From: a virus | Virus record (IMG/VR): IMGVR_UViG_3300044712_000688 | Location: 1-64,000 of that record | Length of the DNA stretch: 64,000 bases | Reading direction: 5' to 3' (one strand) | Part shown: positions 46,282-64,000 of the stretch, in pieces | How the letters are laid out: each line of letters opens with the position of its first letter | Position numbering within the stretch: the first letter of the stretch is position 1 | Notes under the pieces: generated by a model | The model's input: only the letters and a program-made list of their open reading frames with translations | Databases searched by the model: none | Told to the model about the DNA's origin: nothing | Made by a program: the position numbers and the translations under genes

Positions 46282-46332
46282 CTGCTGATCGATCTTCCGA
46301 AAAAAAAAATAAAAAAATCTTTGTTGGAAGAG

Positions 46333-46362
46333 TTGCGCTTTTGTCGCGACTTCGTGTAAAGT
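46333..46362 (+). promoter_or_regulatory. Promoter TTGCGC-18-TAAAGT with upstream A tract
   Basis: Same design at 48183, 52671, 56965, 57868 (TTGCG) and 55343, 55913, 62073 (TTGAC). Confidence 0.7.
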
Positions 46363-46408
46363 TGCTCTTGTCGGGAAAACGACACTCAACTACTGGAAAG
46401 GCACGAAA

Positions 46409-46915
46409 GTGAACCCAACAACATTCGGGGAAGTATCTTCCGAAATTGCTGACGCACTTGCCACTTCGCACGAAGAGGTAAGCAACAAGCCTCGCCTAAT
46501 GGGAATGGGCATTTACCTTGAGGCGCACGCAACCAACTCATACCCACGAACCACGCAAGTTCTGATTACCCCAAGTGGTAAGAATGAAAAGGGTGAGGTC
46601 GTAAGTATGGCTGTTATCTATCGCACCATTAGCGAGTTCTCACCTCGCGCTCAATGGCGCACTAACTTTGTTCGCACTCCAAAAGAGTTTGAGGCTATGT
46701 CGCCTGTTGATAAGGCTGTTCACCTCGCCTCGCGTGCTAACGAAACCACTGCGCGTATGTTCCCAGAGGGATTTACGCCACGACCACGACCAATCGTGTT
46801 CGAACTAACTGATGTTGATTTCAGCGACATTAGTTCTTGGAAAGCACCTGCGTCTGCGTTGCGCCGAATTACTAAAGCGCGTGCCGAAGTGGGCTACCCA
46901 GAAAACCTTTACTAG
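46409..46915 (+). CDS. Hypothetical protein
   Basis: GGAAAGG RBS, GTG start. Confidence 0.65.
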   Translation: MNPTTFGEVSSEIADALATSHEEVSNKPRLMGMGIYLEAHATNSYPRTTQVLITPSGKNEKGEVVSMAVIYRTISEFSPRAQWRTNFVRTPKEFEAMSPVDKAVHLASRANETTARMFPEGFTPRPRPIVFELTDVDFSDISSWKAPASALRRITKARAEVGYPENLY

Positions 46916-46942
46916 GGAAATCGAAAAGGACGGAAAACTAAA

Positions 46943-47959
46943 ATGACTATCGAAACCAAAACCCACGAAGAAATCGTGGACGCAATCTACCCAGACCTGA
47001 CTTCACTGATTTTCGGTGTCGCTGTTCAGGGTGAGGACGAAACCAAAGTTCCTGCTGGTCTGACTTCGCTAATGCCGAAAAGTGGACGCGCAAATCTTCG
47101 CGCTAAGATTGGAACTGGAACTCCAAAACCAAAGGCAAAGGCAACTGTGAGCGTAGATGTAATTGAGGGCGCAGAGAAGTATCAGCGTCCAAATGGCGAT
47201 TTCTACTTCTCGCGCTCTTGGGGCGAACATTCAGATGTTGAGGTGCTACGCAAAGCACGCGCAAACAATCAGTATGTGCTTTTGTATGGTGCGCCCGGAA
47301 CTGGCAAAACTGCCCTAGTTGAGGGCGCGTTCCCTAACGAACTTTACACAATTCTTGGTTCAGGCGACACCGAACTTTCGGACTTCATTGGTGGCTATGT
47401 TCAGACCCCAAGTGGTTCGTTCGAATGGGTGGACGGCGTTCTGGTCAAGTCTGCCGAAGAGGGCAAAGTTCTTCTGATTGACGAGATTGGTCTGATTGAC
47501 CCAAAGGTTCTTTCGGCGGTCTATGGTCTAATGGACGGACGCAAGGAAATCGTAATCACTGCGAACCCAGAGCGCGGAACTGTAAAAGCAAAGGACGGCT
47601 TTTATGTGGTCGGCGCGACAAACCCCAATGCGCCGGGCGTGCGCCTAAGCGAGGCGTTGCTCTCACGCTTTTCCATTCAGGCTGAAATGACGACTGACTG
47701 GGCATTGGCTAAGAAGTTGGGCGTTCCTGCGTCTGCTGTTTCAGTCGCACAAAACTTGGCGAAAAAGCAAATGAATGGCGAAACTTCGTGGTCGCCACAA
47801 ATGCGTGAACTGTTGGCATACAAGTCAATCAGCGAAGTGTTTGGAACTAAGTTTGCGATTTCGAACTTGCTTGCGAGTGCGCCCGAACTTGACCGCCCTG
47901 TTGTGGCAGATGTTTTCACTCGCGTGTTCGGTGAAGAGTGTCGCCCTGCGAAGATTTAG
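46943..47959 (+). CDS. MoxR/CbbQ-like AAA+ ATPase
   Basis: GAPGTGKT, LLIDEI, ATNP, SEALLSRF. Confidence 0.88.
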   Translation: MTIETKTHEEIVDAIYPDLTSLIFGVAVQGEDETKVPAGLTSLMPKSGRANLRAKIGTGTPKPKAKATVSVDVIEGAEKYQRPNGDFYFSRSWGEHSDVEVLRKARANNQYVLLYGAPGTGKTALVEGAFPNELYTILGSGDTELSDFIGGYVQTPSGSFEWVDGVLVKSAEEGKVLLIDEIGLIDPKVLSAVYGLMDGRKEIVITANPERGTVKAKDGFYVVGATNPNAPGVRLSEALLSRFSIQAEMTTDWALAKKLGVPASAVSVAQNLAKKQMNGETSWSPQMRELLAYKSISEVFGTKFAISNLLASAPELDRPVVADVFTRVFGEECRPAKI

Positions 47960-47971
47960 TTTCCGTCCGAA

Positions 47972-48016
47972 ACTGAAAAGCGAAGTGCCAGAGCAATCTG
48001 GCACTTTTGCTTTTTC
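47972..48016 (+). terminator. Intrinsic terminator
   Basis: AAGTGCCAGA-GCAA-TCTGGCACTT plus T tract. Confidence 0.8.
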
Positions 48017-48020
48017 GGGG

Positions 48021-48161
48021 GTCGCAGCTTTGGGGATCGTACGCATTACTTCCCACGAAGAATTAACAAAGCTTTGCCCCTGATCGACCATGGCCCAGGG
48101 TTCACCCGGGCACTAGTAATTAGGGATAGAGCTGCGCCGGACTTGGGATCGAAACTGGCCG
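48021..48161. repeat. Polylinker-like linker
   Basis: 3 GATC, 3 AGCT, 2 CCGG, 2 GGCC, CCATGG, CGTACG and ACTAGT in about 140 bp. Confidence 0.85.
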
Positions 48162-48244
48162 AAATCTTTTTGGGAAATGGGGTTGCGCTCAATCGCAAAA
48201 GTGCGCTATCCTAAATGGGTAATCAGTTTTGGAAAGGACTGGAA

Positions 48245-50035
48245 ATGACGCACTACAAACCAACTTCGCGCCTCGCTACTCGCGCTGGCGCAACTCCGTC
48301 TGAATGGTTAGCAACTTGCGCCCAGATTGGTCAAGTCGCTAATGAGTGGGCTGGTCGTAATGACTTGGCTGTCTATGCTGGTGAGGACGCTGGTATGGGT
48401 CAAGCGATTGCTTGCTTTATTGGCGACACTGCTGAAATCGAAATCAACTTGGCTGGCGCGTTTGGAAAAGCAACCACGCCTGAAATGGTTGGCGACTTTA
48501 CACTTCGCGCAACCCAATACGAATGGGCAGAACCAACTGGCGTGATTTACCACGAGGCTCTTCACGCGCGTTCGTCTGATAAGTGGGATTACTCGCTCTT
48601 CGAAAGTGAACACAACAAGGGCAACCAAAATGTTCTTGACGCTTTCTGGTTGCTAGAGGAAAGTCGCATTGAGCGCATTGGCGTTTTGACTTACCCAAAG
48701 AATAGGCTCTTCCTGCGTGCGTCTGCTCTTGGTCTGGCTCTTGGCGAGATTGACGAAGAGGCATTGGCAAAGGCAAGCGAGGTTCGCGTAATGGCGCAAA
48801 TGTCTGGACTTGCTCTCGCTCGCGTGGACGCTGGCGTTGTTGGTCTGGCAGATGTTCAGAAGATTTACGAGCGTGCGCTTGATGTTCTTGGCGAAGAGTT
48901 GTTTGAGAAGTTGCGTTCTGTTTGGGTGCGTTTCCACGCTCTTCCAAATGGCGCGACTGTCGCTGGTCTGGACTTGGCACGCGAGTGGGTTGAGTTGCTA
49001 CGCGAGGCTGACCCAGAGGGCGAGAATGGTCAAGGTGCTGGAATGGCTTTCGTTCTCGCGACCAAAGGCGACTTGGAAGAGGACGCTGGTGGCACTGCGA
49101 TTTCTGTTTCGATTGACTTGGCTGACCAACAGACTGACGAAGAGTGGGCAGAAGAGGCAAAGGGTCGCGCAACCCAGAGCAAGAAGAAGAGCGAAGAGCG
49201 CAAGGTCGCTGAAATTATTTTCGACAAGCGCGAAGAGGGTTCTACTGGAACTAAGTCGCGTTCAGCACTTCGCGAAAAGCGTGCGCCAAAATCAGGTGAG
49301 CGTGCGAGTGCTGTGAAGATTGCCGAAATGTTGGACAAGGCGAAGTATCGTGAGCGTTCAGTTCACATTCGCAAAACCCACGAACCACTTGGCAAACTCA
49401 ATACTCGCAACGCTGTTCAGAATAGTGCTATGAAGTCAATGGGATTGCGTGGCGAACTTCCTGCTTGGAAGTCGAAGTCGCGCAAACACACTGACGACCC
49501 AACGCTGACCATTGGCGTAATGGTGGACATTTCAGGTTCTATGGGTTCGGCTATGGACGCTATGGCGACAACTGCTTGGGTGCTAAGTGAGGCTGGTCGT
49601 AGGGTTCAGGCGAAAACCGCTATGGTCTATTTCGGCGAAGATGTATTCGCAACTCTCAAGGTTGGGCAGAAGTTGGAAGAGGTTTCGGTCTGGTCTGCGC
49701 CTGACGGAACAGAGGTCTTTGATAAAGGGTTCTCGGCTCTCAATGGTGCGCTCGGTCTGACCTACTCGGACGGCGTGCGTTTGTTGGTCGTTGTGTCGGA
49801 CGGAAACTACACCCCGAAAGAAACCGCCAACGCGAAACGGATTGTGAAAGAGTGCGAACAGGCTGGCGTGGCTGTGCTGTTCATTACCCCAAAGGATTGC
49901 TACGGCACTGGCGCACGCGACATTACTAACGGCACGCACGCGGTTCACCTAGACGGAATGGCTGTCGAAAGTATCGCGCTGGAAATCGGCAAGTCTGCGT
50001 CTGACGCTCTCGCGAAAATCGGGGGTGGCGTGTAA
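48245..50035 (+). CDS. VWA-domain protein with N-terminal HExxH (CobT-like partner of the AAA+ ATPase)
   Basis: YHEALH; MIDAS DISGS...T...SDG. Confidence 0.85.
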   Translation: MTHYKPTSRLATRAGATPSEWLATCAQIGQVANEWAGRNDLAVYAGEDAGMGQAIACFIGDTAEIEINLAGAFGKATTPEMVGDFTLRATQYEWAEPTGVIYHEALHARSSDKWDYSLFESEHNKGNQNVLDAFWLLEESRIERIGVLTYPKNRLFLRASALGLALGEIDEEALAKASEVRVMAQMSGLALARVDAGVVGLADVQKIYERALDVLGEELFEKLRSVWVRFHALPNGATVAGLDLAREWVELLREADPEGENGQGAGMAFVLATKGDLEEDAGGTAISVSIDLADQQTDEEWAEEAKGRATQSKKKSEERKVAEIIFDKREEGSTGTKSRSALREKRAPKSGERASAVKIAEMLDKAKYRERSVHIRKTHEPLGKLNTRNAVQNSAMKSMGLRGELPAWKSKSRKHTDDPTLTIGVMVDISGSMGSAMDAMATTAWVLSEAGRRVQAKTAMVYFGEDVFATLKVGQKLEEVSVWSAPDGTEVFDKGFSALNGALGLTYSDGVRLLVVVSDGNYTPKETANAKRIVKECEQAGVAVLFITPKDCYGTGARDITNGTHAVHLDGMAVESIALEIGKSASDALAKIGGGV

Positions 50036-50049
50036 GTCGGCGTGCCTAA

Positions 50050-50158
50050 GAAGTCCATTAGCGGATTGAGCAAACTCGTTTCCCCCCTTTCCAAAATCGC
50101 TCTCCGCTAACGGATTAGGAATTCCTATCAGTTCCCCCACTGGTAGGGATTTCGCTTT
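50050..50158 (+). ncRNA. Candidate double-hairpin RNA with C6 and C5 loops
   Basis: TCCATTAGCGGA/TCCGCTAACGGA stem around TTTCCCCCCTTT; ATTCCTATCAGT/ACTGGTAGGGAT stem around CCCCC. Confidence 0.55.
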
Positions 50159-50159
50159 G

Positions 50160-50345
50160 CCCGGACTAGACGGATACGCGCAAGAGCTGCGAGCGCGTGA
50201 AGATCGATCTGGACTTTCCACGGATATGTGCCCGGGTCTTAATCAGGATCACGATCACTGGAACTTACCAAAGCTTCGGGGATCGTTAGCTGTGCCCGGG
50301 GCTGATCGATCAGAGAGCAAGGCCGGACCTGGCGAGAGCTGCTAC
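50160..50345. repeat. Polylinker-like linker
   Basis: 7 GATC, 4 AGCT, 4 CCGG and 1 GGCC in about 185 bp. Confidence 0.85.
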
Positions 50346-50423
50346 GAAACTTCCAACGAAGATGTTTGTTTTGTCGCTGATGTGTGCTACTATTTACTTG
50401 TTGCCAAAAGAAGGGAAACGACA

Positions 50424-50711
50424 ATGTGCGACAACTGTGGAAACGACACCCCAAACTTCGCTGAAATGGAGTTGGACGAGAGGGACATTGCTGGCATTGC
50501 TCTTACTGCCATTGGTGTCTTTGTCGAGGACTACTGTAAGCAGGGATACGCTGACCCAAGGATGTATCGCTTGCTGGAACTTGCGACTGAACTTGGTAAG
50601 AAGTTTGGTAGCGAGGGATTGCTGAACTACTTGGAAACCACCAAGATTTACGCTGGTATGACCATTGACCATTTGATTGAGGAACACAACCTAACTGGAG
50701 AGGAGAACTAA
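50424..50711 (+). CDS. Hypothetical protein
   Basis: GAAGGGAAAC RBS. Confidence 0.65.
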   Translation: MCDNCGNDTPNFAEMELDERDIAGIALTAIGVFVEDYCKQGYADPRMYRLLELATELGKKFGSEGLLNYLETTKIYAGMTIDHLIEEHNLTGEEN

Positions 50712-50713
50712 AA

Positions 50714-51571
50714 ATGCCAAACTGGGTTTACAACACCCTGAGCGTTTCAGGTTCAAAGGAAAAGATTGCTGAGTTCAAGGAACTGGCAGGACGCAAAGCA
50801 CCAACTGGATTCGATAGCGAAACTGGCGTGCTGACTTACGATAACAAGGAGGAGGTCTTGTCGTTCTGGAACTTCAAAGAGCCAAAGGACAAGGCTGTTT
50901 ACTTTGGGGCGAGCGACTACAAGCCAGAGGGCTACGACTCTTGGACTATGGAAGAGCGTATGGCTCACTCTATGAAGTTCTCATCTGATGGCTGGTATGA
51001 CTGGAACATTCGTGAGTGGGGCACTAAGTGGGACGCTTGTGATGTGGACTTGAATGACGACAGCGAAACCTCGCTGGGCTACTCGTTCAATACGGCGTGG
51101 AGTATTCCCGAGCCTGTGTTCGTGGCTATGGTTCAGAAGTTCCCGACTTTGGACTTCGAGTTCTGGAGTGAGGAAGAGCAGGGCTGGGGTGCGGAGTTCA
51201 CTTCTTCGGACGGCGACGAGGACGGCGAGCGTTCCTTGATTATGACTAAGGAATGGGACATCCCCGACAGCCACCAAGACTATGTGGACAGGGACAGGGA
51301 GGATTCCTGTAATTGTGCGAGCGACCCTGACGACGACGAGTATTGGTATGACGACTGCCCTCGTCCCGAAAAGGAGTTCGAGGTTGTAGTTCGGCAAGTC
51401 ATTCGCATTACGGCGAAGTCGGCTGAATCGGCGTGGGAGATTGCGAACGGCGTGCTGGAAAACTTCACCAACGCCGAGCAACCAGACGGCGTGCGTATTA
51501 GCGAGGACAGCGTGGCGTGGGTTGAGGAAGACGGAGTGCGTGTCTATCCGACCTTGACCGAGGTTGCCTAA
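50714..51571 (+). CDS. DUF1281/YubB-like phage protein
   Basis: MPNWVYNTL...WYDWNIREWGTKWDA...FNTAWS. Confidence 0.75.
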   Translation: MPNWVYNTLSVSGSKEKIAEFKELAGRKAPTGFDSETGVLTYDNKEEVLSFWNFKEPKDKAVYFGASDYKPEGYDSWTMEERMAHSMKFSSDGWYDWNIREWGTKWDACDVDLNDDSETSLGYSFNTAWSIPEPVFVAMVQKFPTLDFEFWSEEEQGWGAEFTSSDGDEDGERSLIMTKEWDIPDSHQDYVDRDREDSCNCASDPDDDEYWYDDCPRPEKEFEVVVRQVIRITAKSAESAWEIANGVLENFTNAEQPDGVRISEDSVAWVEEDGVRVYPTLTEVA

Positions 51572-51640
51572 CCCCTAACGGACAGAGAACACCAGTGGCG
51601 AGAGAGCTGCTGGTGTTTTTTGTTTGACGGATAGGCGTGC

Positions 51641-51961
51641 GTGGACTACGCTGATCGTATGAAAAATGAAATGCTTTACCGCGAAGCCCTCGGACACATT
51701 GTTCGAGAGGAACGGATCGATCAGGGACTGACTCTACGCCAGGTCGCAGCTCGTGCGAACATCGCACTCGGATACCTAAGCGAGGTCGAGCGCGGACAGA
51801 AAGAGCCGTCCTCTGTAATTGTGGAATGCCTAGCAACCGGACTTGGTCTAAGTACAGGCGAGCTGATTATTCGCGCCGGGATCCTGGTGGGTGGATACAA
51901 CATTCCAGATACTGTCGAAGAGCTGCTGGTCGATCTAGGCCAAAAAACTTTCGCCAAATAG
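51641..51961 (+). CDS. XRE-family HTH regulator, ClgR-like
   Basis: LRQVAARANIALGYLSEVERGQKEPSS. Confidence 0.8.
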   Translation: MDYADRMKNEMLYREALGHIVREERIDQGLTLRQVAARANIALGYLSEVERGQKEPSSVIVECLATGLGLSTGELIIRAGILVGGYNIPDTVEELLVDLGQKTFAK

Positions 51962-52036
51962 TTTGTATTTTCTCTGACTTAGTGTAAACTGGGGGCGTGC
52001 CTGAAAAAGAGTAGGGCGTAGGGAAAGGGAAGTCCA

Positions 52037-52510
52037 ATGGGACTAGATATGTATCTATCTGCTCGCAAGTACGTGAGTGGTTACGATTTCAACAAAGAGC
52101 CAGAAAAGCAGGCGTACGCTGAAGTTCTATCTGCTAGTGGCTTGACCAAGTCAGACTTGGAATATGGGAACCCAAGTGCCAACATCGTGATTAGCGTGGG
52201 GTACTGGCGCAAGGCGAACCAAATCCACAACTGGTTTGTTCAGAATGTTCAGGGTGGGGTTGATGAGTGCCAAAGGGCTTGGGTATCTCGTGAGCAACTG
52301 GCTGAACTTCTTCAGGCGTGCGAAACTGTTTTGGCTGATGCCACGAAGGCCGAAGAGTTGTTGCCACCACAGAGTGGGTTCTTCTTCGGAAGTACTGACC
52401 TTGATGAGTGGTACTACGAAGATGTGAAGTACACCGCCAAAATGCTGAACCACCTTTTGACTTCGGAAAATCTGAAGGAGTACGATTTCGAATACCAATC
52501 CAGTTGGTAG
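52037..52510 (+). CDS. Conserved phage protein (MGLDMYL...YWRKANQIHNWF)
   Basis: Recognisable phage motif set including GFFFGS..YE. Confidence 0.75.
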   Translation: MGLDMYLSARKYVSGYDFNKEPEKQAYAEVLSASGLTKSDLEYGNPSANIVISVGYWRKANQIHNWFVQNVQGGVDECQRAWVSREQLAELLQACETVLADATKAEELLPPQSGFFFGSTDLDEWYYEDVKYTAKMLNHLLTSENLKEYDFEYQSSW

Positions 52511-52748
52511 TCGTTTCCCTAAAAAGCAAGAACCCTCGCCTTCGGGCGGGGGTTCTTGTTTGGCGTGAGCGCAGCTGAACCGGATCAATGGATTACGCGC
52601 TCGCGGTTTGGGTGATCCAGGCTGGGGGCTACCGTCGGAACTTCCAACGAAAAAAATTTCTCGTATGAAGTTGCGTATTATCGGCGTATCCTGCTAAACT
52701 CTAAGGGTGGACGAAAAAGTTCACTTGGAAACTATCAAAGGGAAACAA

Positions 52749-53138
52749 ATGGAAACCGTATCAGTCACTGGTCTAGTAGCAACCACACCTCGCCACATCG
52801 TAACTCAGGACGGCTTGCCGATTACTTCATTCCGTCTCGCGAGTTCTTACCGTCGGTTTGACCTCAACCAAGGCAAGTGGGTGGACGGCGAGACGAATTG
52901 GTTCACCGTCACTTCGTTCAAGCAACTCGCTATCAACGCGTCTCAGTCTGTAAGCAAGGGCGACCGTATCACCGTCACTGGCACTCTTCGCGTTCGCGAC
53001 TGGGACACTGGCGACCGTTCAGGAACTTCGGTTGAACTTGAGGCTACCTCAATGGGACACGACCTCGCTTGGGGAACTTCGGTTTTCACTCGCACCGTTT
53101 TGGTTCGCGAGGTTGAGCCTGAGGAGGAGTTAGTCTAA
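52749..53138 (+). CDS. ssb: Single-stranded DNA-binding protein, short, without DDxPF tip
   Basis: FRLAS..R.FD...W.DGET.WF.V...LA.N...S..KGDR..V.G.L.V. Confidence 0.88.
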   Translation: METVSVTGLVATTPRHIVTQDGLPITSFRLASSYRRFDLNQGKWVDGETNWFTVTSFKQLAINASQSVSKGDRITVTGTLRVRDWDTGDRSGTSVELEATSMGHDLAWGTSVFTRTVLVREVEPEEELV

Positions 53139-53297
53139 CCGCCAACTCAACCCGACAACCTGAGCAAGTTGTAAAACTGCTCGCCACTTATTTCTGGCTG
53201 GTCCAGGCGCGATCGATCTGCAGCTGGAGATCAAGGCTCGAAAAAAAGTTTCTGGCGTGTCGTTGAAAATGTCAGTGGGTGGTGCTACATTTGAAGT

Positions 53298-53504
53298 ATG
53301 TCAAACAGAAAAGAATTCAAGCAGATAGTCAAGGTCGCCGAGTCCAAGGGCTGGGTCGTGACTCTGACTAAGGGGGGACACTTGAAGTGGACTTCGCCAA
53401 CTGGGCAAATAGTTTTTTCCGCGTCCACGCCGTCAGACGGGCGTGCCGTCAAAAACCTAGTGTCGGAACTTCGCCGACACGGAATCACAATCGAGAGGAA
53501 ATAA
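53298..53504 (+). CDS. hicA: HicA-like (dsRBD-fold) toxin homolog, leaderless
   Basis: GW...KGGHLKW..P...TPSD..AVKN...LRRHG. Confidence 0.7.
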   Translation: MSNRKEFKQIVKVAESKGWVVTLTKGGHLKWTSPTGQIVFSASTPSDGRAVKNLVSELRRHGITIERK

Positions 53505-53505
53505 A

Positions 53506-53709
53506 TTGAGCAAGCAGGTATTTTTTGTCATTGGCGTTGATTTAGATGATAAAGAGGTTTTTATCGCAGATGACACTTATTCAGCGCGGTTTAGTGAAGA
53601 TGAGCAAGTTTGGGATACAGACGCAAACGAGTGGATTGAAGATGACGATAGGAAATACTATCTCGATGCGTTAGACCTTTTGAACACGAAGCGTCTAGCA
53701 AAAGACTAG
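53506..53709 (+). CDS. Acidic hypothetical protein
   Basis: GAGG RBS, TTG start. Confidence 0.55.
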   Translation: MSKQVFFVIGVDLDDKEVFIADDTYSARFSEDEQVWDTDANEWIEDDDRKYYLDALDLLNTKRLAKD

Positions 53710-53822
53710 GGGCGCGGCGCTCGCCGGATCGCTGGAAAAAAACTTTCGTTGAAAGTTGCCAAAATGTCGGCATAGTATGCTAAAGTTCTATTAGTTGGGA
53801 AATGCCCAACAGTTAGGGAGAC

Positions 53823-54032
53823 ATGGAACCTCAAGTTCTAACTGACGCACTAGCGTCAATCGCAGATGCCAACTCGAAGTTGGATGCCATTCAACCACTA
53901 TCCGAGGCTGTTTCTAGCCTTATGGTCGTGGCTAACCTTTTGACTGACCTCAAGATGTTTGAGCAGGTCAATTCGGTTCTCGAAGTATCAAACTCACTTC
54001 TGGAAATCGTGAACTCACGCCTAAACGCTTAG
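53823..54032 (+). CDS. Hypothetical helical protein
   Basis: Own promoter, RBS and terminator. Confidence 0.65.
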   Translation: MEPQVLTDALASIADANSKLDAIQPLSEAVSSLMVVANLLTDLKMFEQVNSVLEVSNSLLEIVNSRLNA

Positions 54033-54233
54033 GCTAGGTTCGAGAGCGAACGCTCACCCTTCGGGGTGGGCGTTTTCTCTTTGTCCGGTGAGTGGAGAGC
54101 TGCAACTCAGATCGATCTAACCCTGGCCGGCCGATCCCGAGCTGGTGAAAAGTTTTCTTCGTTGGTTGTTGCGTTTTTTATCAGTTGATGGTAATTTTGT
54201 TGTGTAGCGAGTTGCTACGGAAAGTAGGGAAAA

Positions 54234-55972: not shown

Positions 55973-56029
55973 ATGTGTGAGGACTTTCCTTGCTGTGGCC
56001 ATGACCATGGCGACTGCCCAAGACGGTAG
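55973..56029 (+). CDS. 18-aa Cys/His micropeptide (MCEDFPCCGHDHGDCPRR)
   Basis: Only ORF between promoter TTGACA-17-TATATT (55913) and terminator (about 56036-56068). Confidence 0.55.
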   Translation: MCEDFPCCGHDHGDCPRR

Positions 56030-56189
56030 TTGATAAAGAGCCCTGGCTTCGGCCAGGGTTTCTTTTTGCCCGGACCGGACCGGAGCTGATCTTGCAGCTT
56101 GTCAATCTGCCAGAAATTCCGTTATCTTTTTGTTATGGAAATTTGTACAAACTGACTTGCGCTAAGTGGCAAAGTGTGGTTTACTATTA

Positions 56190-56372
56190 CTAACAATTCA
56201 ATAGTGTTCTTAGTCGCAACATCTAATGGCTATGGATTACCAACTTGGGCTTGATACTAGTAAGAGTCGCTCGTTTGTAAATACGGTTTCAGATTTCCCT
56301 TCGACAAGAAATGAGAATTGGTCTCTGCAGAGACAGAACCCCCTAGGCGACGGTCTGGGGGGTTTTCTCATT
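56190..56372 (+). ncRNA. Candidate small RNA: unit with promoter and terminator but no RBS-led ORF
   Basis: TTGCGC at 56157 and TACTAT at 56182; terminator at about 56335-56372; shares ACTTGGGCTTGA...CGCTCG with the 58501 element. Confidence 0.5.
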
Positions 56373-56521
56373 TCTGGGGTGGTCGATCCGGCGTGATGCG
56401 TTTCGATCGGATTCAAAGCTGCAGCTCGCCAGGGCCGGATCGATCGACACGCAGCGAAAACATTCGTTGAAAGTTTTCCTTATGTATGGTAAGTTTGTAG
56501 TGGATAGAAAGGGGTAGCCAA

Positions 56522-56839
56522 ATGGCTCGAATTCCAAATTACAAGATTGAAGAAAAACTGAAGAACTTTGAAAGTTTTGAGAACTACAACCGAACCATTA
56601 CCGCGGTTCGTGACGGTTCTCGCTATTCGATTGTTCACTGGAACACACCGATTCTTGAGTATGACGTGGACAAGTCTGAGATTGTCATGTTTCGCAGTTA
56701 CCACATTTCTCAAACAACTAGCACGCTGGTCGGCCGTATCTTGCGCTCGCTACCGCCCGAAGTTGTGCTTGAGATGTCGCGCAAGTTTTCGGAGCGCCGA
56801 GAGCAGTATCGCATTTTGAAAATGGCTCGCTTGATTTGA
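56522..56839 (+). CDS. Hypothetical protein
   Basis: GAAAGGGG RBS; SQTTS motif; own terminator. Confidence 0.65.
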   Translation: MARIPNYKIEEKLKNFESFENYNRTITAVRDGSRYSIVHWNTPILEYDVDKSEIVMFRSYHISQTTSTLVGRILRSLPPEVVLEMSRKFSERREQYRILKMARLI

Positions 56840-57031
56840 AAGTGAGCAAACCGGAACCCCGCCCAAGTGGCGGGGTTTTGTTTTGATCGGATCTAGTGCC
56901 GAGAGCTCGCCCCGGGTTCGCAGCTGATCGATCTGAAGACACGAAAGAAAATGTTCGTTGGAAGTTGCGTGTTGTTTCGAAATGCGGTATCTTTTTATTA
57001 GGCGAAAACGCCTAAACGAAAGGGAAACGAA

Positions 57032-57349
57032 ATGGCAATGACCAAGAGAACAGCACACCTTTTGACTAGTGACTTTTGCCTAAAGGGTCACGACATTCGG
57101 GATAAAGAAGTTGCTCTCACTAGACACAATAGGCGCAACGGTGACGGCGAAATTGTTGGCGTGACGATTAGGTGTCGTGTCTGCTGGAACGATACCAGTA
57201 GGGAGCAGATGTATAAATTCAGGAAAACCGCTGGAACACCTGCTCTACAAATCAAGCGCTTACTAATCAAGCACCCAGAACTCGCACCTGCTCTACTGGA
57301 ACACGCTAAAAACCTGCTGTTGGCGCAGGCTATGAGCGTCAAGTCTTAG
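57032..57349 (+). CDS. Basic protein with C-x2-GH...C-x2-C finger
   Basis: CLKGH...CRVC. Confidence 0.65.
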   Translation: MAMTKRTAHLLTSDFCLKGHDIRDKEVALTRHNRRNGDGEIVGVTIRCRVCWNDTSREQMYKFRKTAGTPALQIKRLLIKHPELAPALLEHAKNLLLAQAMSVKS

Positions 57350-57396
57350 CAACTATCTCTGTAACAACTACCAACCAAAAACGAAAGGGAAACAAA

Positions 57397-57777
57397 ATGG
57401 CAAACTTTGATTTGATCGAGGAACGCGTTGAAGACGCAAAGGCAATTGCTTGGGACACTTGCCACAAGATTTATGTTCTTATGGATGATGAACAAGTCTC
57501 ACTTATGCGTAAGTATGAGTATGACCCGATTATCACCAAAGACGAAATGACCGCAACTGAAATGGCAGAGACTATCAAGAAGTGGTATGACGAAAGTTGT
57601 GGTTTGCGTTTCGTGAGCGCGGTCTCAACTATGCCCGAAGGTCAAGACGCTAACGAAGGTTTCGAAACCCTAATCGGGCAATTCGAAGAAGACGATTGTG
57701 AAGATTGTGGTGAGCGCGGTTGCGCTGGTGTCTGTAATGACTACGAAGACGAAGACGAAGAAGAAGAAGAAGACTAG
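57397..57777 (+). CDS. Acidic phage protein
   Basis: AIAWDTCHKIY, WYDESCGLRF, acidic tail. Confidence 0.7.
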   Translation: MANFDLIEERVEDAKAIAWDTCHKIYVLMDDEQVSLMRKYEYDPIITKDEMTATEMAETIKKWYDESCGLRFVSAVSTMPEGQDANEGFETLIGQFEEDDCEDCGERGCAGVCNDYEDEDEEEEED

Positions 57778-57934
57778 GGGGTGAGCTAAGCTTCGGCCGC
57801 GCTCGCGGATCGAAGTGGTCGCCCTGGTCGATCGATCGCCGGACACGAAAATAATCTTCGTTAGAAGTTGCGCTAACAACCAAAATACAGTATCTTTGTA
57901 GTAGGCAAATTGCCTAGAAAGTAGGGAAAGAAAA

Positions 57935-58144
57935 ATGAGTTTCGGAGAGCCGAAGTATCCAGATGTTCAGGTTCAGTTGGTCGGGGAAGACGGAAACGCT
58001 TTCGCGATTATGGGGCGTGTGGCTAGCGCACTAAAGAGCGCAGGTGTGTCTCAGTCTGAGATTGACGAATACTATGCCGAGAGCACAAGTGGCGATTATG
58101 ACCACTTGCTACGCACCGCAGTCAAATGGGTGGCGGTGGCATAA
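57935..58144 (+). CDS. Conserved small phage protein
   Basis: VQLVGEDGNAFAIMGRV...SGDYDHLL. Confidence 0.75.
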   Translation: MSFGEPKYPDVQVQLVGEDGNAFAIMGRVASALKSAGVSQSEIDEYYAESTSGDYDHLLRTAVKWVAVA

Positions 58145-58491
58145 TGGGAGACCGCTCGCTGATTCAGATTGAGAGCAAGTCTTTCAAGACCCCGATTACC
58201 CTTTATGGACACTGGTCGGGTGGAGATAACCTAATCGCTGTTCGCAATGTGCTGACTCGCACTGACCGAATCGGAGACCCAAATTACCTAACCGCGCAGC
58301 TGTTCTATGAGTTCGCGGTGGCTTTGGGTGGCTACGCCGGAGAGTTGTCTTTCGGGATTGACGCCTATGGTGCTAGCGAGAGCGATGTCTGGGTTGATAA
58401 CGACACAGTGGTTGTGAACGCCGACACTGGAGAGTATTCAGTCGGTGGAGAATTGTTTACCGAATTTGCGAAAGTCGCAGATAGCGTGTAA
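58144..58491 (+). CDS. MGDRS...LYGHW family protein (related to 54668-55192)
   Basis: Shared N-terminal pattern. Confidence 0.65.
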   Translation: MGDRSLIQIESKSFKTPITLYGHWSGGDNLIAVRNVLTRTDRIGDPNYLTAQLFYEFAVALGGYAGELSFGIDAYGASESDVWVDNDTVVVNADTGEYSVGGELFTEFAKVADSV

Positions 58492-58494
58492 ACT
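58466..58494 (+). promoter_or_regulatory. Promoter TTGCGA-17-TAAACT in the end of the upstream gene
   Basis: Matches the array promoter pattern; positioned to drive the 58501-58612 RNA. Confidence 0.65.
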
Positions 58495-58500
58495 GATAGA

Positions 58501-58612
58501 AGTCACTTGGGCTTGAGATTACTCGCTCGGGTGATTATGCGGAAGGAGTTATCCCCCTTTCACCTTCCGCAAAGAGAGCGGTAGCAATTCCCCCCAATTG
58601 CTACCGTTTTTC
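58501..58612 (+). ncRNA. Candidate sRNA: three hairpins, two with C5 loops (6C-RNA-like)
   Basis: TCACTTGGG/CTCGGGTGA; GCGGAAGG/CCTTCCGC around TATCCCCCTTTC; CGGTAGCAATT-CCCCC-AATTGCTACCG-T tract. Confidence 0.65.
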
Positions 58613-58617
58613 TTTTG

Positions 58618-58705
58618 TCTGGATTAGGGCCGCGCTCGCGGTGATCGATCAGAGCTGCACCCTGGCCGGACCGGAGCTTGCCGGGATCGAAACGCGCTCG
58701 CGGAA
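58618..58705. repeat. Polylinker-like linker
   Basis: 3 GATC, 2 AGCT, 3 CCGG, 2 GGCC and GAATTC in about 90 bp. Confidence 0.85.
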
Positions 58706-58774
58706 TTCGTTTGAAGTTGCTTGCTTTTCTTGTTGTTGTGGAGTAACCTGTTGGTATCCAAAGAAAGGGAAACA

Positions 58775-58915
58775 ATGGAAACCAAAGAGATTACCGAGTG
58801 CTACAAATGCCAAACCGAGATTGAAGCATTCGTTGGGCAAGTTCATCCGTTGTGTGATGAGTGTCAAGAAAGTTTTGACGATTGGTTCGCACAACAATTG
58901 CGGATGTTCAAGTAA
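58775..58915 (+). CDS. 46-aa zinc-ribbon-like protein
   Basis: CYKC...CDEC; consensus RBS. Confidence 0.6.
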   Translation: METKEITECYKCQTEIEAFVGQVHPLCDECQESFDDWFAQQLRMFK

Positions 58916-58992
58916 TCGCACGACACGACTAACCTAGTTGCGTGTTTGAGCAAACTAGGCTAATCTGGAATTACCTAGAAAGGGGAAACGAA

Positions 58993-59142
58993 ATGGCAAA
59001 GCAAGACACGATTTGGATTGGTTGCTGGGATTGTGGTAAGACTATTGAAGTGCCTTGGATTGGGGACTATTCAAGTCGCCAGATTTGTGCCGAGTGTAAA
59101 GCAGAAAGGGCTGAAAAATGGGCAGTAATCTCGAAGGGCTAA
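58993..59142 (+). CDS. 49-aa zinc-ribbon-like protein
   Basis: CWDC...CAEC; consensus RBS. Confidence 0.6.
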   Translation: MAKQDTIWIGCWDCGKTIEVPWIGDYSSRQICAECKAERAEKWAVISKG

Positions 59143-59168
59143 GTCGCTACAAAAGGCGCAAGGAAATT

Positions 59169-59342
59169 ATGAACGCACGAAAGACCGCACTAGAAGTCTT
59201 TGGGGCGCTCGCCGAGTATGACGCAAAGCCAGAAGTCTTTTCGATTTTCGATGGAATGGAATTCGAAGTCGTGAACGAAACTGGAATGGCGTTGGATGTT
59301 GAGTTCGTTGGTCGCACCATTACAATTAGGAATTGGAAATAA
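59169..59342 (+). CDS. Hypothetical protein
   Basis: AAGGA RBS. Confidence 0.55.
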   Translation: MNARKTALEVFGALAEYDAKPEVFSIFDGMEFEVVNETGMALDVEFVGRTITIRNWK

Positions 59343-59752
59343 TCGTGATTGGATTTCACCGTTTTATGGAAAAGTTTTGGCGAGTGATTAGCGCGATTGC
59401 CTTTCGCACTTTTCACACTACGCAGACGCTCGCGCATAAGTCTTATGTAAAGGGTGGTCGCCACGGTCGCCGTCGTCAGGAACGCAAACCCCTAACCGCA
59501 ATCTGGAAGTGGTGGCAGAATGTCAAAGCGCAATTCTGAGTTCGCGATTATTTGGCGTGGCCTTGCTGTTGGGCTAGGGTTTGTCTTTATTATGGGGTTC
59601 GCGATCGGTTATCGTGACGGGCTTACCCCCTGGTTTTTGCTTGGCGCAGCTACTGTTTGTTGGTGGCTATCAAGAAATTGATTTGACTTTTTAGGGAAAC
59701 GCAGTAAACTGATTCTGTTAGCAAATGCTGACACTTACGAAAGGGAAACAAA

Positions 59753-60124
59753 ATGGGAACAAAGGTATTCGCAATTCGTATCAATGAAGATGGCGGATTT
59801 GTTTTCGGGGACGAAACTCACGAAGTAATTTCACTTGACTTTCTACAGTCATTCGTTGGCGGTTGGGTTCAGGTTGTGCCACTATCTGGTTCACTCTCTG
59901 GCTTGTCAATGTGGCTAAACGAAGAAGGCAAGTTTTCAGACCTTCCGCTAAATGAGTTGGCAACCGCAATTTGGGAAGACTCATACGGCAAGACTGATTT
60001 TATCGTTGGCAATGTTCTAATCACTGGTGGCGAAGACTACGATGGTGAGATTGAAACTCTCACTAGTGAAGAAACTGATAAGATTATGGAAGTTGTTCTG
60101 AAAGCAATGGAACACTCTCACTAA
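59753..60124 (+). CDS. DUF3846-like protein
   Basis: LQSFVGGWVQ, NEEGK...N.LAT, DFIVGNVLITG. Confidence 0.8.
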   Translation: MGTKVFAIRINEDGGFVFGDETHEVISLDFLQSFVGGWVQVVPLSGSLSGLSMWLNEEGKFSDLPLNELATAIWEDSYGKTDFIVGNVLITGGEDYDGEIETLTSEETDKIMEVVLKAMEHSH

Positions 60125-60192
60125 GTTTCGTTTCCCTACGAAAAAAGACCTAGGCTAAGTCTCTAAACTGGCCTTTTATCACGCCTAGATTA

Positions 60193-60310
60193 TGGAAGCT
60201 CGCGCTCGCAGTTTTGATCAAAATTGTTCGCAGCTTGGCCCGGCCCTGGCCTAGTTGGTCGATCCGCGCTCGCCGGCCTTGGTCGATCCGCGCAGCTCGA
60301 CACGCTCGCA
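60193..60310. repeat. Polylinker-like linker
   Basis: Repeated GCTCGC, TTGGTCGATCCGCG x2, GCAGCT, GGCC and CCGG. Confidence 0.8.
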
Positions 60311-60396
60311 AACATTCGTTGGAAGTTGCTTGACTTTTACTCGCGCAGTGTGGCAAGATTGAGTTAGCCGAAAGGCACTAAGGAAAGGGAAACAAA

Positions 60397-60825
60397 ATGG
60401 AAACTGTAGTAATGGCATTCGAAACTTTCGAGATTACCAATTCTTGTATCTGTGAAGATTACGATGAAGACACCGAGATGTCGTCACCTAGCAACGAATG
60501 TTGGGGTTGCTATGACGATGAAGTTAGCAACTTGTGGTATGAAGTCATCAAGCCTTGGATGAACGCGAATGGCTACGATGAAGCCACTAACCTAATCATT
60601 CGCGGAAGTGGAATGACTTGGCAACGCTTGAGCGGATACGCTTACGCGACACCGAAGACGCTTGTTGAGAAGTTGTCTATCAACGGCGATTGGACACTAA
60701 GGTTCAAGATTACAGACGGCGCGAAGACACTCACCGCTGTTCGCTACTCTCACGATGAGCCAGTTGGCACTGGCGAGTTTACTTTCGAAGTTGCCGAAGA
60801 AGAAGACGAAGACGAATTGTTCTAG
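60397..60825 (+). CDS. Acidic phage protein
   Basis: Consensus RBS; YSHDEP motif. Confidence 0.7.
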   Translation: METVVMAFETFEITNSCICEDYDEDTEMSSPSNECWGCYDDEVSNLWYEVIKPWMNANGYDEATNLIIRGSGMTWQRLSGYAYATPKTLVEKLSINGDWTLRFKITDGAKTLTAVRYSHDEPVGTGEFTFEVAEEEDEDELF

Positions 60826-60936
60826 CGCGACACGCTCGCGACACGCAACCGCCCGATGTGGCGGTTGTTGTGTTTTTGGCAGATGTGTGGCATACTTTTG
60901 TTATCGGCAGAAAGCCGAAAAACGAAAGGGAAACAA

Positions 60937-61107
60937 ATGGCACTAGACGCACAGACCGCAAACACCGTTCGACACTTGCTAATGCGCTTGTCGGCAGAGA
61001 CAACCGTAGACGCTTGGTTGCTCGCAGAGAATGAAGAATTGGCAGAAATGTGGAAAGACGGCGCAACCTATGAGCAAATGCTCGAATGGGTAAACGAAAA
61101 CTTTTAG
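60937..61107 (+). CDS. Hypothetical protein
   Basis: Consensus RBS and terminator. Confidence 0.6.
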   Translation: MALDAQTANTVRHLLMRLSAETTVDAWLLAENEELAEMWKDGATYEQMLEWVNENF

Positions 61108-61152
61108 CCCGAAGAAATGGAAAGCCCTCGCGAAAGCGGGGGTTTTCTTTTT

Positions 61153-61283
61153 ACGCGCTCGCGGGTTTTTGATTCTGATCGATCACCGGCCAGGACCGCG
61201 CAGCTTGTTCGTTCGAAGTTGGCAGCTTGTTCGCCGGATACCGCCGGGCTTAGGCAGCTTGTTCGCCGGGGCAAGGCCGGAAG
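61153..61283. repeat. Polylinker-like linker
   Basis: GGCAGCTTGTTCGCCGG x2, GATCGATC, several CCGG. Confidence 0.8.
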
Positions 61284-61389
61284 CCGTTATCAATTTGTTA
61301 CAAAAATTATTTGGAAATTGACTTGTATTTTCGAAAAATAGAGTATGCTTATTACATAAGCCGAAAGGCAAAAACGAAAGGGAAACGAA

Positions 61390-61722
61390 ATGCTACTAAA
61401 CACTAAGACCGAGATTGCTTTCACTACTGGCGAGATTGACGGCAAGAAGTTCATCGGCGCAACCAAAGCAGACGCAAGCGCAGTTTTCACCGCTTGGCTA
61501 AACGACAACCTAGATTGGGTTTCGGCAGGGCGTGAGAACAACGCGGTTGAGATTGTTGGCGTATCTTATGACTTGGTTTCGTTCAACAATTCTGTTTATG
61601 TCGCTTGGTTGTGCAATGAATGCGAGAGCAACGATTGCGAGAGCGATGGCGAACCGCACGAAGAAGAGATTGGCAATTGCCGATTCGAAGATTTGGAATT
61701 GGTTAGCGAGTATCGGCGCTAA
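61390..61722 (+). CDS. Hypothetical protein, Cys-containing acidic C terminus
   Basis: Consensus RBS and terminator. Confidence 0.65.
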   Translation: MLLNTKTEIAFTTGEIDGKKFIGATKADASAVFTAWLNDNLDWVSAGRENNAVEIVGVSYDLVSFNNSVYVAWLCNECESNDCESDGEPHEEEIGNCRFEDLELVSEYRR

Positions 61723-61771
61723 CCCCAAACCCGAAAGCCCCTAGCAGAGATGCTAGGGGTTTCTTTTTGTG

Positions 61772-62020
61772 TGGATTGTTTCGCGCTCGCGGTCTCTAAT
61801 TTTGATCGAAATTGCTCGCAGCTTGTTGGTCGATCGACCGAAGTTTTTGGCAGCTCGCGCCGGGTTGTTCGCAGCTCATACCCCAAACCTTGCCGGGTTG
61901 TTCGTTAGAAGTTTGCCGGATTGCTCGCAGCTCATAGTCGGATTGCGCCGGGCCTTGCCGGGTTAGAAGCAGCTCGCGCTCGCCGGATTGGTTGGAAGTT
62001 GGTTAGCAGTCTGCCGGGGC
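61772..62020. repeat. Long polylinker-like linker
   Basis: Multiple GCAGCT, GCCGG, GCTCGC, GATC. Confidence 0.8.
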
Positions 62021-62148
62021 GAGTGCTAATTTCCCGTTATCAAACTGTGATAAAAATTTTCTCGAATTGACTTGACAAAAGAAAAAATACCGCTTATGCT
62101 TATTCCATAAGCCAAACGGCTTAGATACAAAAACGAAAGGGAAACAAA

Positions 62149-62451
62149 ATGACCGCAAAGACCGCAACCGTAGCAGTAGACCTAGTTTCACTCATCGCCG
62201 AGTTGGTAGATGTGAAGAAGGCAAAGGCAGACCTAGCAAACCGCGAGAGCGCAATTCGCAAGGTTGTCTTGGCAGAAACTGGAAATACCGCAACCGTAAT
62301 CGCAGACCCAAAAACTGGCGAAGTGATTGCCGAAGTGACCGAGAGCGTTCGCCGTTCGGTAAACGATTGGGAAGAGTTCGAAGCAACTTACCCAGAAGCA
62401 TACGAAGCCTTGGTGAAGTTCACCGATGTTTTGACCCTGAACACAAAGTAA
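62149..62451 (+). CDS. Small coiled-coil protein, paralog of 55424-55723
   Basis: Near-identical C-terminal 40 aa. Confidence 0.75.
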   Translation: MTAKTATVAVDLVSLIAELVDVKKAKADLANRESAIRKVVLAETGNTATVIADPKTGEVIAEVTESVRRSVNDWEEFEATYPEAYEALVKFTDVLTLNTK

Positions 62452-62644
62452 AGGGAAAGCGAAAGCCCCTAGCCCGAAAGGGTTAGGGGTTTTCTTTTGC
62501 GCTCGCCAGGATTTGCCTTGGTCGATCCGCGCAACACGCTGAAGAAAAAAAGTTTTGGAATTGACTTGACAAATAAATTAGACCCTGTATGCTTATTACA
62601 TAAGCCAAAAGGGCTTGAGAAAAAAACGAAAGGGAAACAGAAAA

Positions 62645-62938
62645 ATGACTTACACGAAGCACGAAGTAGCGCAGGGTATCGCAGCTTGGTTCGCAATTCT
62701 ATCGGCAGGAATTGTCGCGCCGTTTAGCCTAGAGTTCGTTGGCGTTATCAACTCGATTGGATACGCAGACCTAGCCGAGAAGCAGGCCGACATTGCGCCT
62801 TACCTATTCGGTTCGCTCGCCGTCTTGGTTGTGGCTATGGCGGTTCTGATTGGTTCGTATGTGGCCGAGAACAGGTTCTGGCTACGCCGTAGCCTTGCCG
62901 ACAAACTGGAAAGGCTCGCGCTCGCCGTTCGTGGCTAA
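62645..62938 (+). CDS. Two-TM membrane protein
   Basis: TTGACA-17-TATGCT promoter, RBS and terminator. Confidence 0.65.
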   Translation: MTYTKHEVAQGIAAWFAILSAGIVAPFSLEFVGVINSIGYADLAEKQADIAPYLFGSLAVLVVAMAVLIGSYVAENRFWLRRSLADKLERLALAVRG

Positions 62939-63097
62939 CCCCCTAGCCGAGAAGCCCCTAGCCGATTGTGGCTAGGGGTTTTTCTTTACCGCGACACGCT
63001 CGAAAAAAAAGTTTGCGGAAACCCTTGACAATTGGTTTAGGGTTGGTAAATTAGAAGTGTTAGGTGATACCGCCTAGCAAAACGAAAGGGAAATGAA

Positions 63098-63331
63098 ATG
63101 AACATTCAGAAGTTTGAGAAGGCACAAGACAGACTAACCGCGGTTGTATTCGTTGCGGGTATGGTTGCTTGGTTCTTTGGCGCGGATTACTACGGCTTGG
63201 CTATGGCTAATGACCTAAGCGGATTCGGTGAAGTTGCTTACCCGATTATTCTTGCCGTTAGCGCGGTTGTGGCTATTACCGCGCTCGCGGTGAAAGCCTA
63301 CGGATACCGCCTAGCAAAGACTTACCGCTAA
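63098..63331 (+). CDS. Two-TM membrane protein (similar layout to 62645)
   Basis: TTGACA promoter near 63024, RBS and terminator. Confidence 0.65.
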   Translation: MNIQKFEKAQDRLTAVVFVAGMVAWFFGADYYGLAMANDLSGFGEVAYPIILAVSAVVAITALAVKAYGYRLAKTYR

Positions 63332-63347
63332 CCCCCTAAGCGGTAAA

Positions 63348-63385
63348 CCGAAAGCCCCCTAGCCCCCTAGGGGGTTTTCTTTTGC
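63348..63385 (+). terminator. CCCCTAG/CTAGGGG-type terminator (family also near 61730, 62458, 62950)
   Basis: GAAAGCCCCCTAG-CCCC-CTAGGGGGTTTTCTTTT. Confidence 0.75.
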
Positions 63386-64000
63386 CGTTGCCGTCTAGGA
63401 TTGCTCGCAGCTTGGGCTTGCCGTTGCTTGGTTGTTGGGTTGGTTGTTGGTCGATCCGCGCGTGAGTATCGCGCCCCCGGAAATGGCTCGCCAGTTTTGC
63501 TCGCGTGTTGCTTGGCTAGGCACACACACACACAAACACGCAGGGCTAGGTTTGCTCGAAGCAAAGCTCGAAGACTTGGCAGAAGTTTGCCTAGGCTCGC
63601 CAGGATTAGGCTAACCCCTAAACCCTAGCCCCCTAGGTTCGTTGATAGGTTGTTAGCCCCTAGGCAGACTTATGATGACCCCCAAAGGTTCGTGAGAAGG
63701 CTCGCACACACACAAGACACAAAGACCTAGGCACTTAGTCTTGACCCTTTCGAAGTTGTATCACTATGACCCCCTAGAAAAAAACTTTTTTTATTTTTGG
63801 CAGGAAAAAGGCACTAACTATCAACGAAGAAAAAAGGAAGGCATACCCCCTACTTTTAGGAAACAATTTCGGGGGCGGCCACGATCAACGACTGCCGTCT
63901 CACCCGCCAAAAGCACCTAGCGGTCAATATAGCATAGTACCCCCCTTCTGCAAATTCCTCGGCCAAATAGACGCCCCTATTTACAAAATCCAGCTCCACA

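Follow-up and report, generated by a model that had tools for sequence, protein, structure and literature searches.

A gene array purged of short palindromes, with site-rich spacers between its transcription units, in a siphovirus-like genome

The first 64,000 nucleotides of the 136,298-bp virus record IMGVR_UViG_3300044712_000688, hereafter the window, include an island in which about 30 promoter-gene-terminator units are nearly free of most 4-bp palindromes, and the spacers between these units hold a three- to four-fold excess of some of the same sites. The depletion is an extreme new form of the site avoidance known from phages, for which avoidance of Type II restriction, in DNA that has to function ahead of any protection, is the best explanation. 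The spacer excess is a real, derived trait limited to one sub-lineage. A sequence-only reading of the window had described restriction-type palindromes as purged from genes and packed into the linkers between them, and this contrast was assessed here against shuffled sequences and among related phages.

Extent and specificity of the purge

The island and three of its genes are as follows.

46220-63930, + strand: palindrome-purged island of about 30 promoter-gene-terminator units, delimited by flanking purged-type sites and bin profiles
46943-47959, + strand: AAA_5 (MoxR-like) ATPase gene, purged (Pfam PF07728, E 1e-20)
48245-50035, + strand: gene for a VWA-domain protein with none of eight palindrome types as judged by site counts, used as the query for finding relatives
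52749-53138, + strand: SSB gene, purged (Pfam PF00436, E 3e-17)

The last purged-type site before the island lies at 46216 and the first after it at 63927. The transition is abrupt in 1-kb bins, and the purge is confined to approximately 46.2-63.9 kb of the 136-kb genome. In the VWA gene, GATC, AGCT, CCGG, GGCC, CATG, TGCA, GTAC and ACGT are all absent, where 7-9 of each are expected, and CGCG (22), GCGC (20) and TCGA (6) are retained, exactly as had been noticed from the sequence. When the coding sequences (CDS) of the island, 11.7 kb in total, were compared with 500 synonymous-codon shuffles, the observed and expected counts were 1 versus 29.9 for GATC, 3 versus 42.4 for AGCT, 3 versus 18.3 for CCGG, 7 versus 27.8 for GGCC, 3 versus 31.4 for ACGT, 7 versus 36.5 for GTAC, 1 versus 36.5 for TGCA and 0 versus 24.4 for TTAA. 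The impression that most array genes are poor in GATC, AGCT and CCGG was therefore borne out. A total of 11 of the 16 4-bp palindromes are depleted in the island CDS, and none of the 500 shuffles was as low.

Across the whole island, ACGT, ATAT, CATG, TATA, TTAA, GTAC and TGCA are found 2-11 times each versus about 67 expected. GATC, AGCT, CCGG and GGCC do occur, but nearly all of them lie outside genes, and CGCG, GCGC, TCGA, CTAG and AATT are freely used. The purge also takes in CCWGG (0 versus 11), GCNGC (2 versus 20) and GGNCC (1 versus 15). Of the 256 tetramers, only palindromes stand out as extremely low, and hence the responsible agent reads double-stranded DNA symmetrically.

The purge extends beyond the reading frames. 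In promoters with 5' untranslated regions (UTRs) and 3' UTRs with terminators (2.2 kb), 9 purged-type sites, counting all 11 types, were found versus 73 expected, and no start codon has a GATC, AGCT, CCGG or GGCC within 65 nt, one doubtful open reading frame (ORF) call excepted. As both CDS and transcribed non-coding DNA are affected, the unit of selection is the whole transcription unit and not the reading frame; the phrase 'purged from genes' thus holds for the CDS and is too narrow as a limit. Composition or codon bias as the cause of the purge is ruled out by the codon- and dinucleotide-preserving shuffles that the sequence-only reading had proposed, and the contrast between genes and linkers does not follow from either. 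Its statement that the left arm uses GATC-type sites normally agrees with the counts. In the left arm (1-45000), AGCT is approximately two-fold over-represented (302 versus 153 in 40 kb) and CCGG approximately two-fold under-represented.

As predicted from sequence, the units carry sigma-70-like promoters and a common strong ribosome-binding site, all on one strand. The shared ribosome-binding word is GAAAGGGAAAC, which we take to match the CCUCCUUUC 16S rRNA tail of actinobacterial-type hosts. Terminator-like sites in the island number 40 versus 22 in shuffles, on one strand, and the units nearest the right edge have consensus promoters.

Three relatives, L002-L004, encode VWA proteins 91-94% identical to that of the window (82-96% nucleotide identity) and retain the purge together with the spacer excess. 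The real substitutions that separate the window from L002, L003 or L004 were re-placed at random in 300 simulations, which predicted 38-67 GATC-group sites in genes, where 8-11 are observed, and 56-103 sites of the other seven types, where 16-19 are observed. In neither case was any of the 300 simulations as low, and control palindromes were roughly as simulated. The small number of observed sites indicates that selection on the purge is still acting. A legacy of an ancestral purge that has not re-equilibrated is ruled out, given that dozens of new sites are predicted and none have accumulated.

The set of purged sites varies among more distant relatives. In L010 and L011, with VWA proteins 61% and 54% identical, the units are kept and nearly all 4-bp palindromes have been lost across the whole island, including the spacers. 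In L013-L015 (40% identical) only GATC and ATAT are purged; from about position 7500, more than 13 kb of homologous gene array contain no GATC, with other palindromes at normal levels, a regional avoidance of the same kind but with one forbidden site. No island is present in L012, L016, DSL-LC01 or Pumpernickel. ATAT and TTAA are wholly absent and AATT is rare across the 50 kb of DSL-LC01 examined (L009, 1-50000), which looks like genome-wide avoidance in an island-less relative. That the purged set differs between lineages fits different host restriction-modification (R-M) repertoires. The proposal that the depletion reflects restriction avoidance has therefore gained ground, as the purge is palindrome-specific, acts on DNA and not on codons, is still selected, and involves lineage-specific sets of sites.

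A location-dependent effect of restriction is known in other phages. T5-like phages withstand R-M systems unless sites lie in the first-step transfer (FST) region (PMC10644984; bioRxiv 10.1101/866236), and Type I restriction in Autographiviridae is decided by motifs in the leading region (PMC12455610). By analogy with the proposal made for T5 A1 (bioRxiv 10.1101/866236), the selecting agent might instead be an early nuclease of the phage itself that degrades host DNA at short palindromes, with the purge shielding the island and the spacer sites letting the nuclease detach the array. The purge is indeed confined to DNA that would be in the cell at that time. However, no nuclease was identified among the island proteins in Pfam and PHROG scans, the sites are present elsewhere in the genome, and the purged set varies by lineage, as host R-M would, making this explanation very improbable.

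Site content and recurring words of the spacers

Spacer cores were defined without reference to sites, as the DNA from the T-run of a terminator to 70 nt before the next start codon (2.8 kb in total), and expectations were obtained from a dinucleotide shuffle. GATC was found 51 times versus 15.1 expected (z 10.5), AGCT 42 times versus 11.8 (z 10.2) and CCGG 38 times versus 13.9 (z 7.6), with CCWGG at 19 versus 4.6 and GCWGC at 30 versus 7.3. Sites of the enriched family span 29% of core bases versus 13% in shuffles. There was no significant enrichment of GGCC in the cores (20 versus 14), so that the claimed enrichment of the linkers stands for the other five motifs and fails for GGCC. ACGT and TTAA remain depleted, and the other purged types are near their low shuffle expectation. 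The totals of about 12, 16, 9 and 11 sites given earlier for four named linkers are close to the recounts of 10, 16, 9 and 10. Since 6-bp palindromes in the spacers are not enriched and are at normal density (77 versus 90-100), a true polylinker is ruled out, and the description 'natural polylinkers' was overstated. No clear helical periodicity of the spacer sites was seen. The principal cores, which have no strand, are listed below.

48009-48174: spacer core with 10 GATC/AGCT/CCGG/GGCC sites (site counts), hypervariable among relatives
50153-50353: spacer core with 16 sites and two copies of GATCGATC; an extra small gene is present here in L002 and L003 (site counts, alignment)
56367-56451: spacer core with 9 sites and a TCGATC box (site and word counts)
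56885-56961: spacer core with a CTGATCGATC box 20 nt ahead of a promoter-upstream TTCGTTGG word (word positions)
58617-58704: spacer core with 10 sites, GCGCTCGC words and GATCGATC; fold z +0.1 (counts, folding)
61153-61319: spacer core made of repeated TTGYTCGCAGCTYG and CCGG words (word counts)
61769-62078: longest spacer core, 310 nt, with 15 sites and the same repeated oriented words as 61153-61319 (counts)

Much of the site excess falls within recurring and mostly oriented words, namely YTGRTCGATC, GCAGCT, GCGCTCGC and CCGGA. All 12 copies of GATCGATC in the 136-kb genome are located at 45.15-61.18 kb and, taken together with the copies of TGGTCGATC, they form a YTGRTCGATC box present about once per spacer. 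GCAGCT occurs 23 times in the spacers versus 7 times for its complement, with 0.6 expected, and 15 copies of GCGCTCGC, often as CGCGCTCGCGG, lie on the + strand of the island (46282-63700) and a single copy on the - strand. GCGCTCGC is present in L010 spacers too. Most probably, the recurring words serve as protein-binding or regulatory boxes. Cluster A mycobacteriophages have arrays of repressor sites of the stoperator type; in a comparison of this kind, the island has about one YTGRTCGATC box per spacer and one gene for an XRE-family regulator (see below).

It had been foreseen that the linkers might prove to be structured RNAs or fixed boxes in which the palindromes are incidental. The first possibility is ruled out, as three spacers gave fold z values of -2.5, -0.9 and +0.1, not better than shuffles, and no relevant Rfam match was found; YTGRTCGATC and the oriented GCAGCT do look like fixed boxes. 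Formation of GATCGATC as the fill-in scar of a cut GATC is unlikely to be the main cause, as the YTGR prefix is conserved and 8 copies of the box read TGGTCGATC. Fill-in products predicted for other sites show no enrichment (TCGCGA 5 versus 4.5; CCGCGG not among the top words).

In the close relatives, orthologous spacers are 66-84% identical, and site density is steady at 51-57 per kb. The partition between units and linkers, which it had been suggested to follow in relatives, is therefore kept in L002-L004 as the linkers diverge, and the earlier argument that avoidance alone is insufficient for the spacer excess holds. The bases of individual spacer sites are barely more conserved than their neighbours. 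Breakpoints of insertions, deletions and cassette swaps between close relatives fall in the spacers.

These features bear on whether the excess could be a neutral by-product, in which unconstrained joints grow by local duplication and exchange of words and functionless sites are amplified by chance. Tandem or near-tandem words (CCGGA in three copies, repeated TTGYTCGCAGCTYG), decayed promoter fragments within long spacers, and the low conservation of site bases relative to their neighbours would all be expected. It would be surprising, however, for chance to give the same excess in four genomes at 66-84% spacer identity or to enrich several independent site types, and the same sites are strongly selected out a few bases away in the units, such that a restricting agent seems to be present. 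A purely neutral origin is accordingly considered quite unlikely.

One of the supposed linkers contains a gene.

51659-51961, + strand: gene for an XRE-family helix-turn-helix (HTH) regulator of 100 aa (Pfam HTH_3, E 3e-9)

The XRE gene fills part of the 465-nt 'linker' 51572-52036 and has an apparently leaderless promoter (TTGACG-17-TACGCT). It includes 10 GATC/AGCT/CCGG/GGCC sites, and the seven fully purged types are represented by a single GTAC. Being site-rich yet nearly free of the seven fully purged types, the gene indicates that tolerance is specific to the type of site and not only to location. Its orthologues in L002-L004 are also site-rich, with turnover of sites, and those in L010 and L011 have none. 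The encoded protein is a candidate early-gene regulator.

The arrays of L010 and L011, with their site-free spacers, imply that site-rich spacers are not needed for the array to function. A functional role had been proposed for the spacer sites, and relatives that keep the units with essentially palindrome-free spacers, named in advance as a case that would speak against it, are found in these two genomes. Their spacers instead hold an invariant T-rich 15-16-nt word, GTATTTATTTTTTCT, present once in almost every spacer on the coding strand (15 copies in L010, positions 7567-21243; 10 copies in L011, positions 7555-18466). The first copy lies at the left edge of the island, the same place as GATCGATC in the phage of the window. 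GTATTTATTTTTTCT is a candidate binding site, second promoter or nick site.

Explanations for the spacer sites

The picture that we favour, and to which we give about an even chance of being correct, is an early, restriction-avoiding array with spacer joints built of words. The island would be an immediate-early and probably first-entering gene array, in which a Type II cut within a unit would halt the early programme before the counter-measures of the phage could act, so that every functional part of the roughly 30 units would be kept free of short palindromes. The location of the island directly upstream of a 940-nt repeat-rich non-coding stretch and the packaging genes, its same-strand units and the consensus promoters near that edge are consistent with an immediate-early array at the entering end. 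The spacers are untranscribed, fast-evolving joints upstream of promoters, at which cassettes come, go and are exchanged. In this sub-lineage the spacer words contain GATC, AGCT, CCGG and CCWGG, and in the sister lineages that position is taken by the T-rich 16-mer, with no palindromes. The sites may be tolerated through protection by a phage-encoded C5-methyltransferase, for which a candidate gene is found in the left arm.

24386-24952, + strand: gene for the N-terminal half of a C5 cytosine DNA methyltransferase, 188 aa (PF00145, E 2e-35, profile positions 2-164 only)

An ORF of 320 aa (24744-25706) overlaps and follows this gene in another frame, outside the island, and the two-ORF layout is kept in the relative G003. 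The pair (24386-25706) may represent a split enzyme or a frameshift. The phage of the window and G003 both carry the C5-methyltransferase gene, and the complete L010 genome (G001) lacks it.

Several observations weigh against this picture. If cutting kills, the more than 150 spacer sites should be as lethal as sites in genes, and the favoured explanation thus works only if those sites are shielded or tolerated in some way. The methyltransferase is matched over its N-terminal half only, and the correlation of the gene with site-rich spacers rests on a single evolutionary event (n = 1). The three- to four-fold spacer excess survives sequence turnover, which suggests that the sites themselves are favoured, and not only the words. 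The flanks of the spacer sites are low in information overall and the spacing from box to promoter ranges from 17 to 60 nt, so that the words do not represent one fixed operator. No recognised anti-restriction family was found among the island proteins in Pfam and PHROG scans; a phrog_7245 'anti-restriction' protein is encoded outside the island, among head genes. Finally, entry of the island ahead of other DNA is a step that we infer.

On a less likely reading, spacer sites are selected as such in the dispensable DNA that separates the units, either for sacrificial cuts and as decoys or as 5-methylcytosine (m5C) pads that would mark the incoming DNA for early expression.

The first of these forms, sacrificial break points or decoys, would require the entering copy to be disposable, for instance as a long terminal repeat; cuts would then leave the units expressible, and the sites would titrate the enzymes until counter-measures had been produced. 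Sites are barred from all functional parts of the units and are enriched three- to four-fold exactly in non-functional DNA, their density in the spacers is kept despite turnover, and the XRE gene, perhaps not needed at once, is also site-rich. In the Davison model of T5, FST DNA is cut off in a normal infection (bioRxiv 10.1101/866236). Nevertheless, the depletion of ACGT and TTAA in the spacers and the pattern of site types in the XRE gene indicate that tolerance is specific to site type and not to location. The sister lineages manage without spacer sites, host exonucleases would reach linear fragments, some 50 extra sites per enzyme are few relative to the hundreds in the rest of the genome, and the terminal repeat is an assumption of the explanation itself. 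Hence, break points or decoys are judged unlikely.

The second form, methylation pads, holds that the phage C5-methyltransferase methylates GATC, AGCT, CCGG, CCWGG or GCWGC-type sites. Dense m5C upstream of each early promoter would then label the parental DNA, and a regulator, for example the XRE protein, would read it to time early expression. Known m5C methylases for such sites are those of the Sau3AI, AluI, HpaII, EcoRII and BbvI systems, and the enriched sites all hold a cytosine of the kind targeted by known m5C enzymes. Moreover, the site clusters lie directly upstream of promoters, one of them contains the XRE regulator gene, and the methyltransferase gene is found together with site-rich spacers but not in the complete genome of the site-free relative, a weak correlate at n = 1. 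Only half of the enzyme is recognisable, though, no Dam-type or N4/N6 methyltransferase was found in the genome, and a comparison of mutability at sites outside the island gave no signal of the m5C type, a result that weighs little either way. Methylation would also not by itself explain why methylated sites are excluded from the units, and the pads are regarded as improbable.

Genome setting, known systems and significance

Genes for a portal, a large terminase, a major head protein, a tape-measure protein and a family A DNA polymerase are present in the genome. Its portal shares 74% identity with that of DSL-LC01, a metagenome-assembled Actinomycetia phage, and 60-65% identity with those of large Microbacterium phages (PMC10611076). 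As judged by these proteins, the phage is a siphovirus related to actinobacterial phages. A megablast search of the island and left arm against the phage collection gave no match, and PHROG and Pfam scans assigned almost no functions to island proteins. The ends of the record overlap by 127 bp, which is most simply read as an artefact of circular assembly. Synteny with Pumpernickel and DSL-LC01, both without the island, was used to place the genome ends and gave no firm answer.

Two further features of the island and its border were identified.

58492-58616, + strand: structured transcribed 3' element with C-rich loops and without purged sites (fold z -6.6)
63332-64000, no strand: start of a 940-nt non-coding stretch, CTAG- and repeat-rich, that runs on to 64272 past the window; the purge ends inside it

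A second structured transcribed element with C-rich loops is located at 50036-50160 (fold z -3.7). Neither element matched an Rfam family, and a similar element is found in L010 near 16,300. The island lies directly upstream of the 940-nt stretch, which contains CCTAGG/CTAG-rich repeats and CA runs, and of packaging genes. Two paralogous island genes of about 100 aa, 55424-55723 and 62149-62451, share 130 nt at 77% identity, and weakly match the C-terminal part of the RecE-like exonuclease family phrog_434. Two neighbouring 2-oxoglutarate (2OG)-Fe(II) oxygenase genes (42680-44053) are found immediately upstream of the island, and a carbamoyltransferase gene (67587-69026 of the genome) immediately downstream; all three might serve to modify DNA or nucleotides.

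Clusters of methylation sites that govern DNA transactions are known from the P1 pac site, with its TGATCA/G hexamers, and from Dam-controlled promoters. As in pac, GATC-containing words are clustered in non-coding control DNA of the island, and the box core TGATCG resembles the pac hexamer. Unlike P1, however, the phage encodes no Dam-type enzyme, several site types are involved, and clusters precede about 20 promoters; methylation is hypothetical here.

In the FST region of T5 and BF23 and in leading regions of the T7 type, sites matter only in the first-exposed DNA, and that region is kept site-free (PMC10644984; 10.1101/866236; PMC12455610). The island resembles the T5 FST in having a large repeat-rich non-coding stretch at its edge, and the 940-nt stretch, which resembles the repeat region at the FST border, is a candidate genome end or entry signal. 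The island differs from the FST in belonging to a different phage group, relatives of actinobacterial siphoviruses, and in the far broader purge, which takes in 11 of 16 tetramer palindromes and several 5-mers across 17.7 kb, can be traced to individual transcription units, and is paired with a spacer excess of some of the same sites; here, moreover, first entry is only what we infer. The PeSL cassettes of T4-type phages likewise consist of small, mostly unknown genes with a strong sigma-70-like promoter and a stem-loop terminator, and gains, losses and replacements between close relatives break at these elements (PMC2839356, PMC4122927). The island units, by contrast, are not T4-type, have no sequence relation to or shared consensus with PeSL cassettes, and include a separate spacer with its own boxes and palindrome excess. 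Short palindromes are also counter-selected in genome-wide avoidance by phages, as with ATAT and TTAA in DSL-LC01, whereas avoidance in the island is local and sharp-bordered, and its sign is reversed in the spacers. For this reversal we know of no described precedent and no established mechanism.

The island is an unusually clean natural read-out of restriction pressure, resolved per transcription unit, still acting and written in a lineage-specific forbidden vocabulary. It could thus become possible to tell from sequence alone what part of its DNA an uncultured phage exposes first, and what R-M specificities are present in its hosts. The arrays offer restriction-silent expression cassettes and many unknown early proteins, some of which may be anti-defence factors. 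Current avoidance theory gives no reason to expect the reversal of sign in the spacers, which, if functional, would represent a new anti-restriction or early-timing tactic; spacer sites selected as such, if that proves true, would be a previously undescribed organisation of a leading region against R-M.

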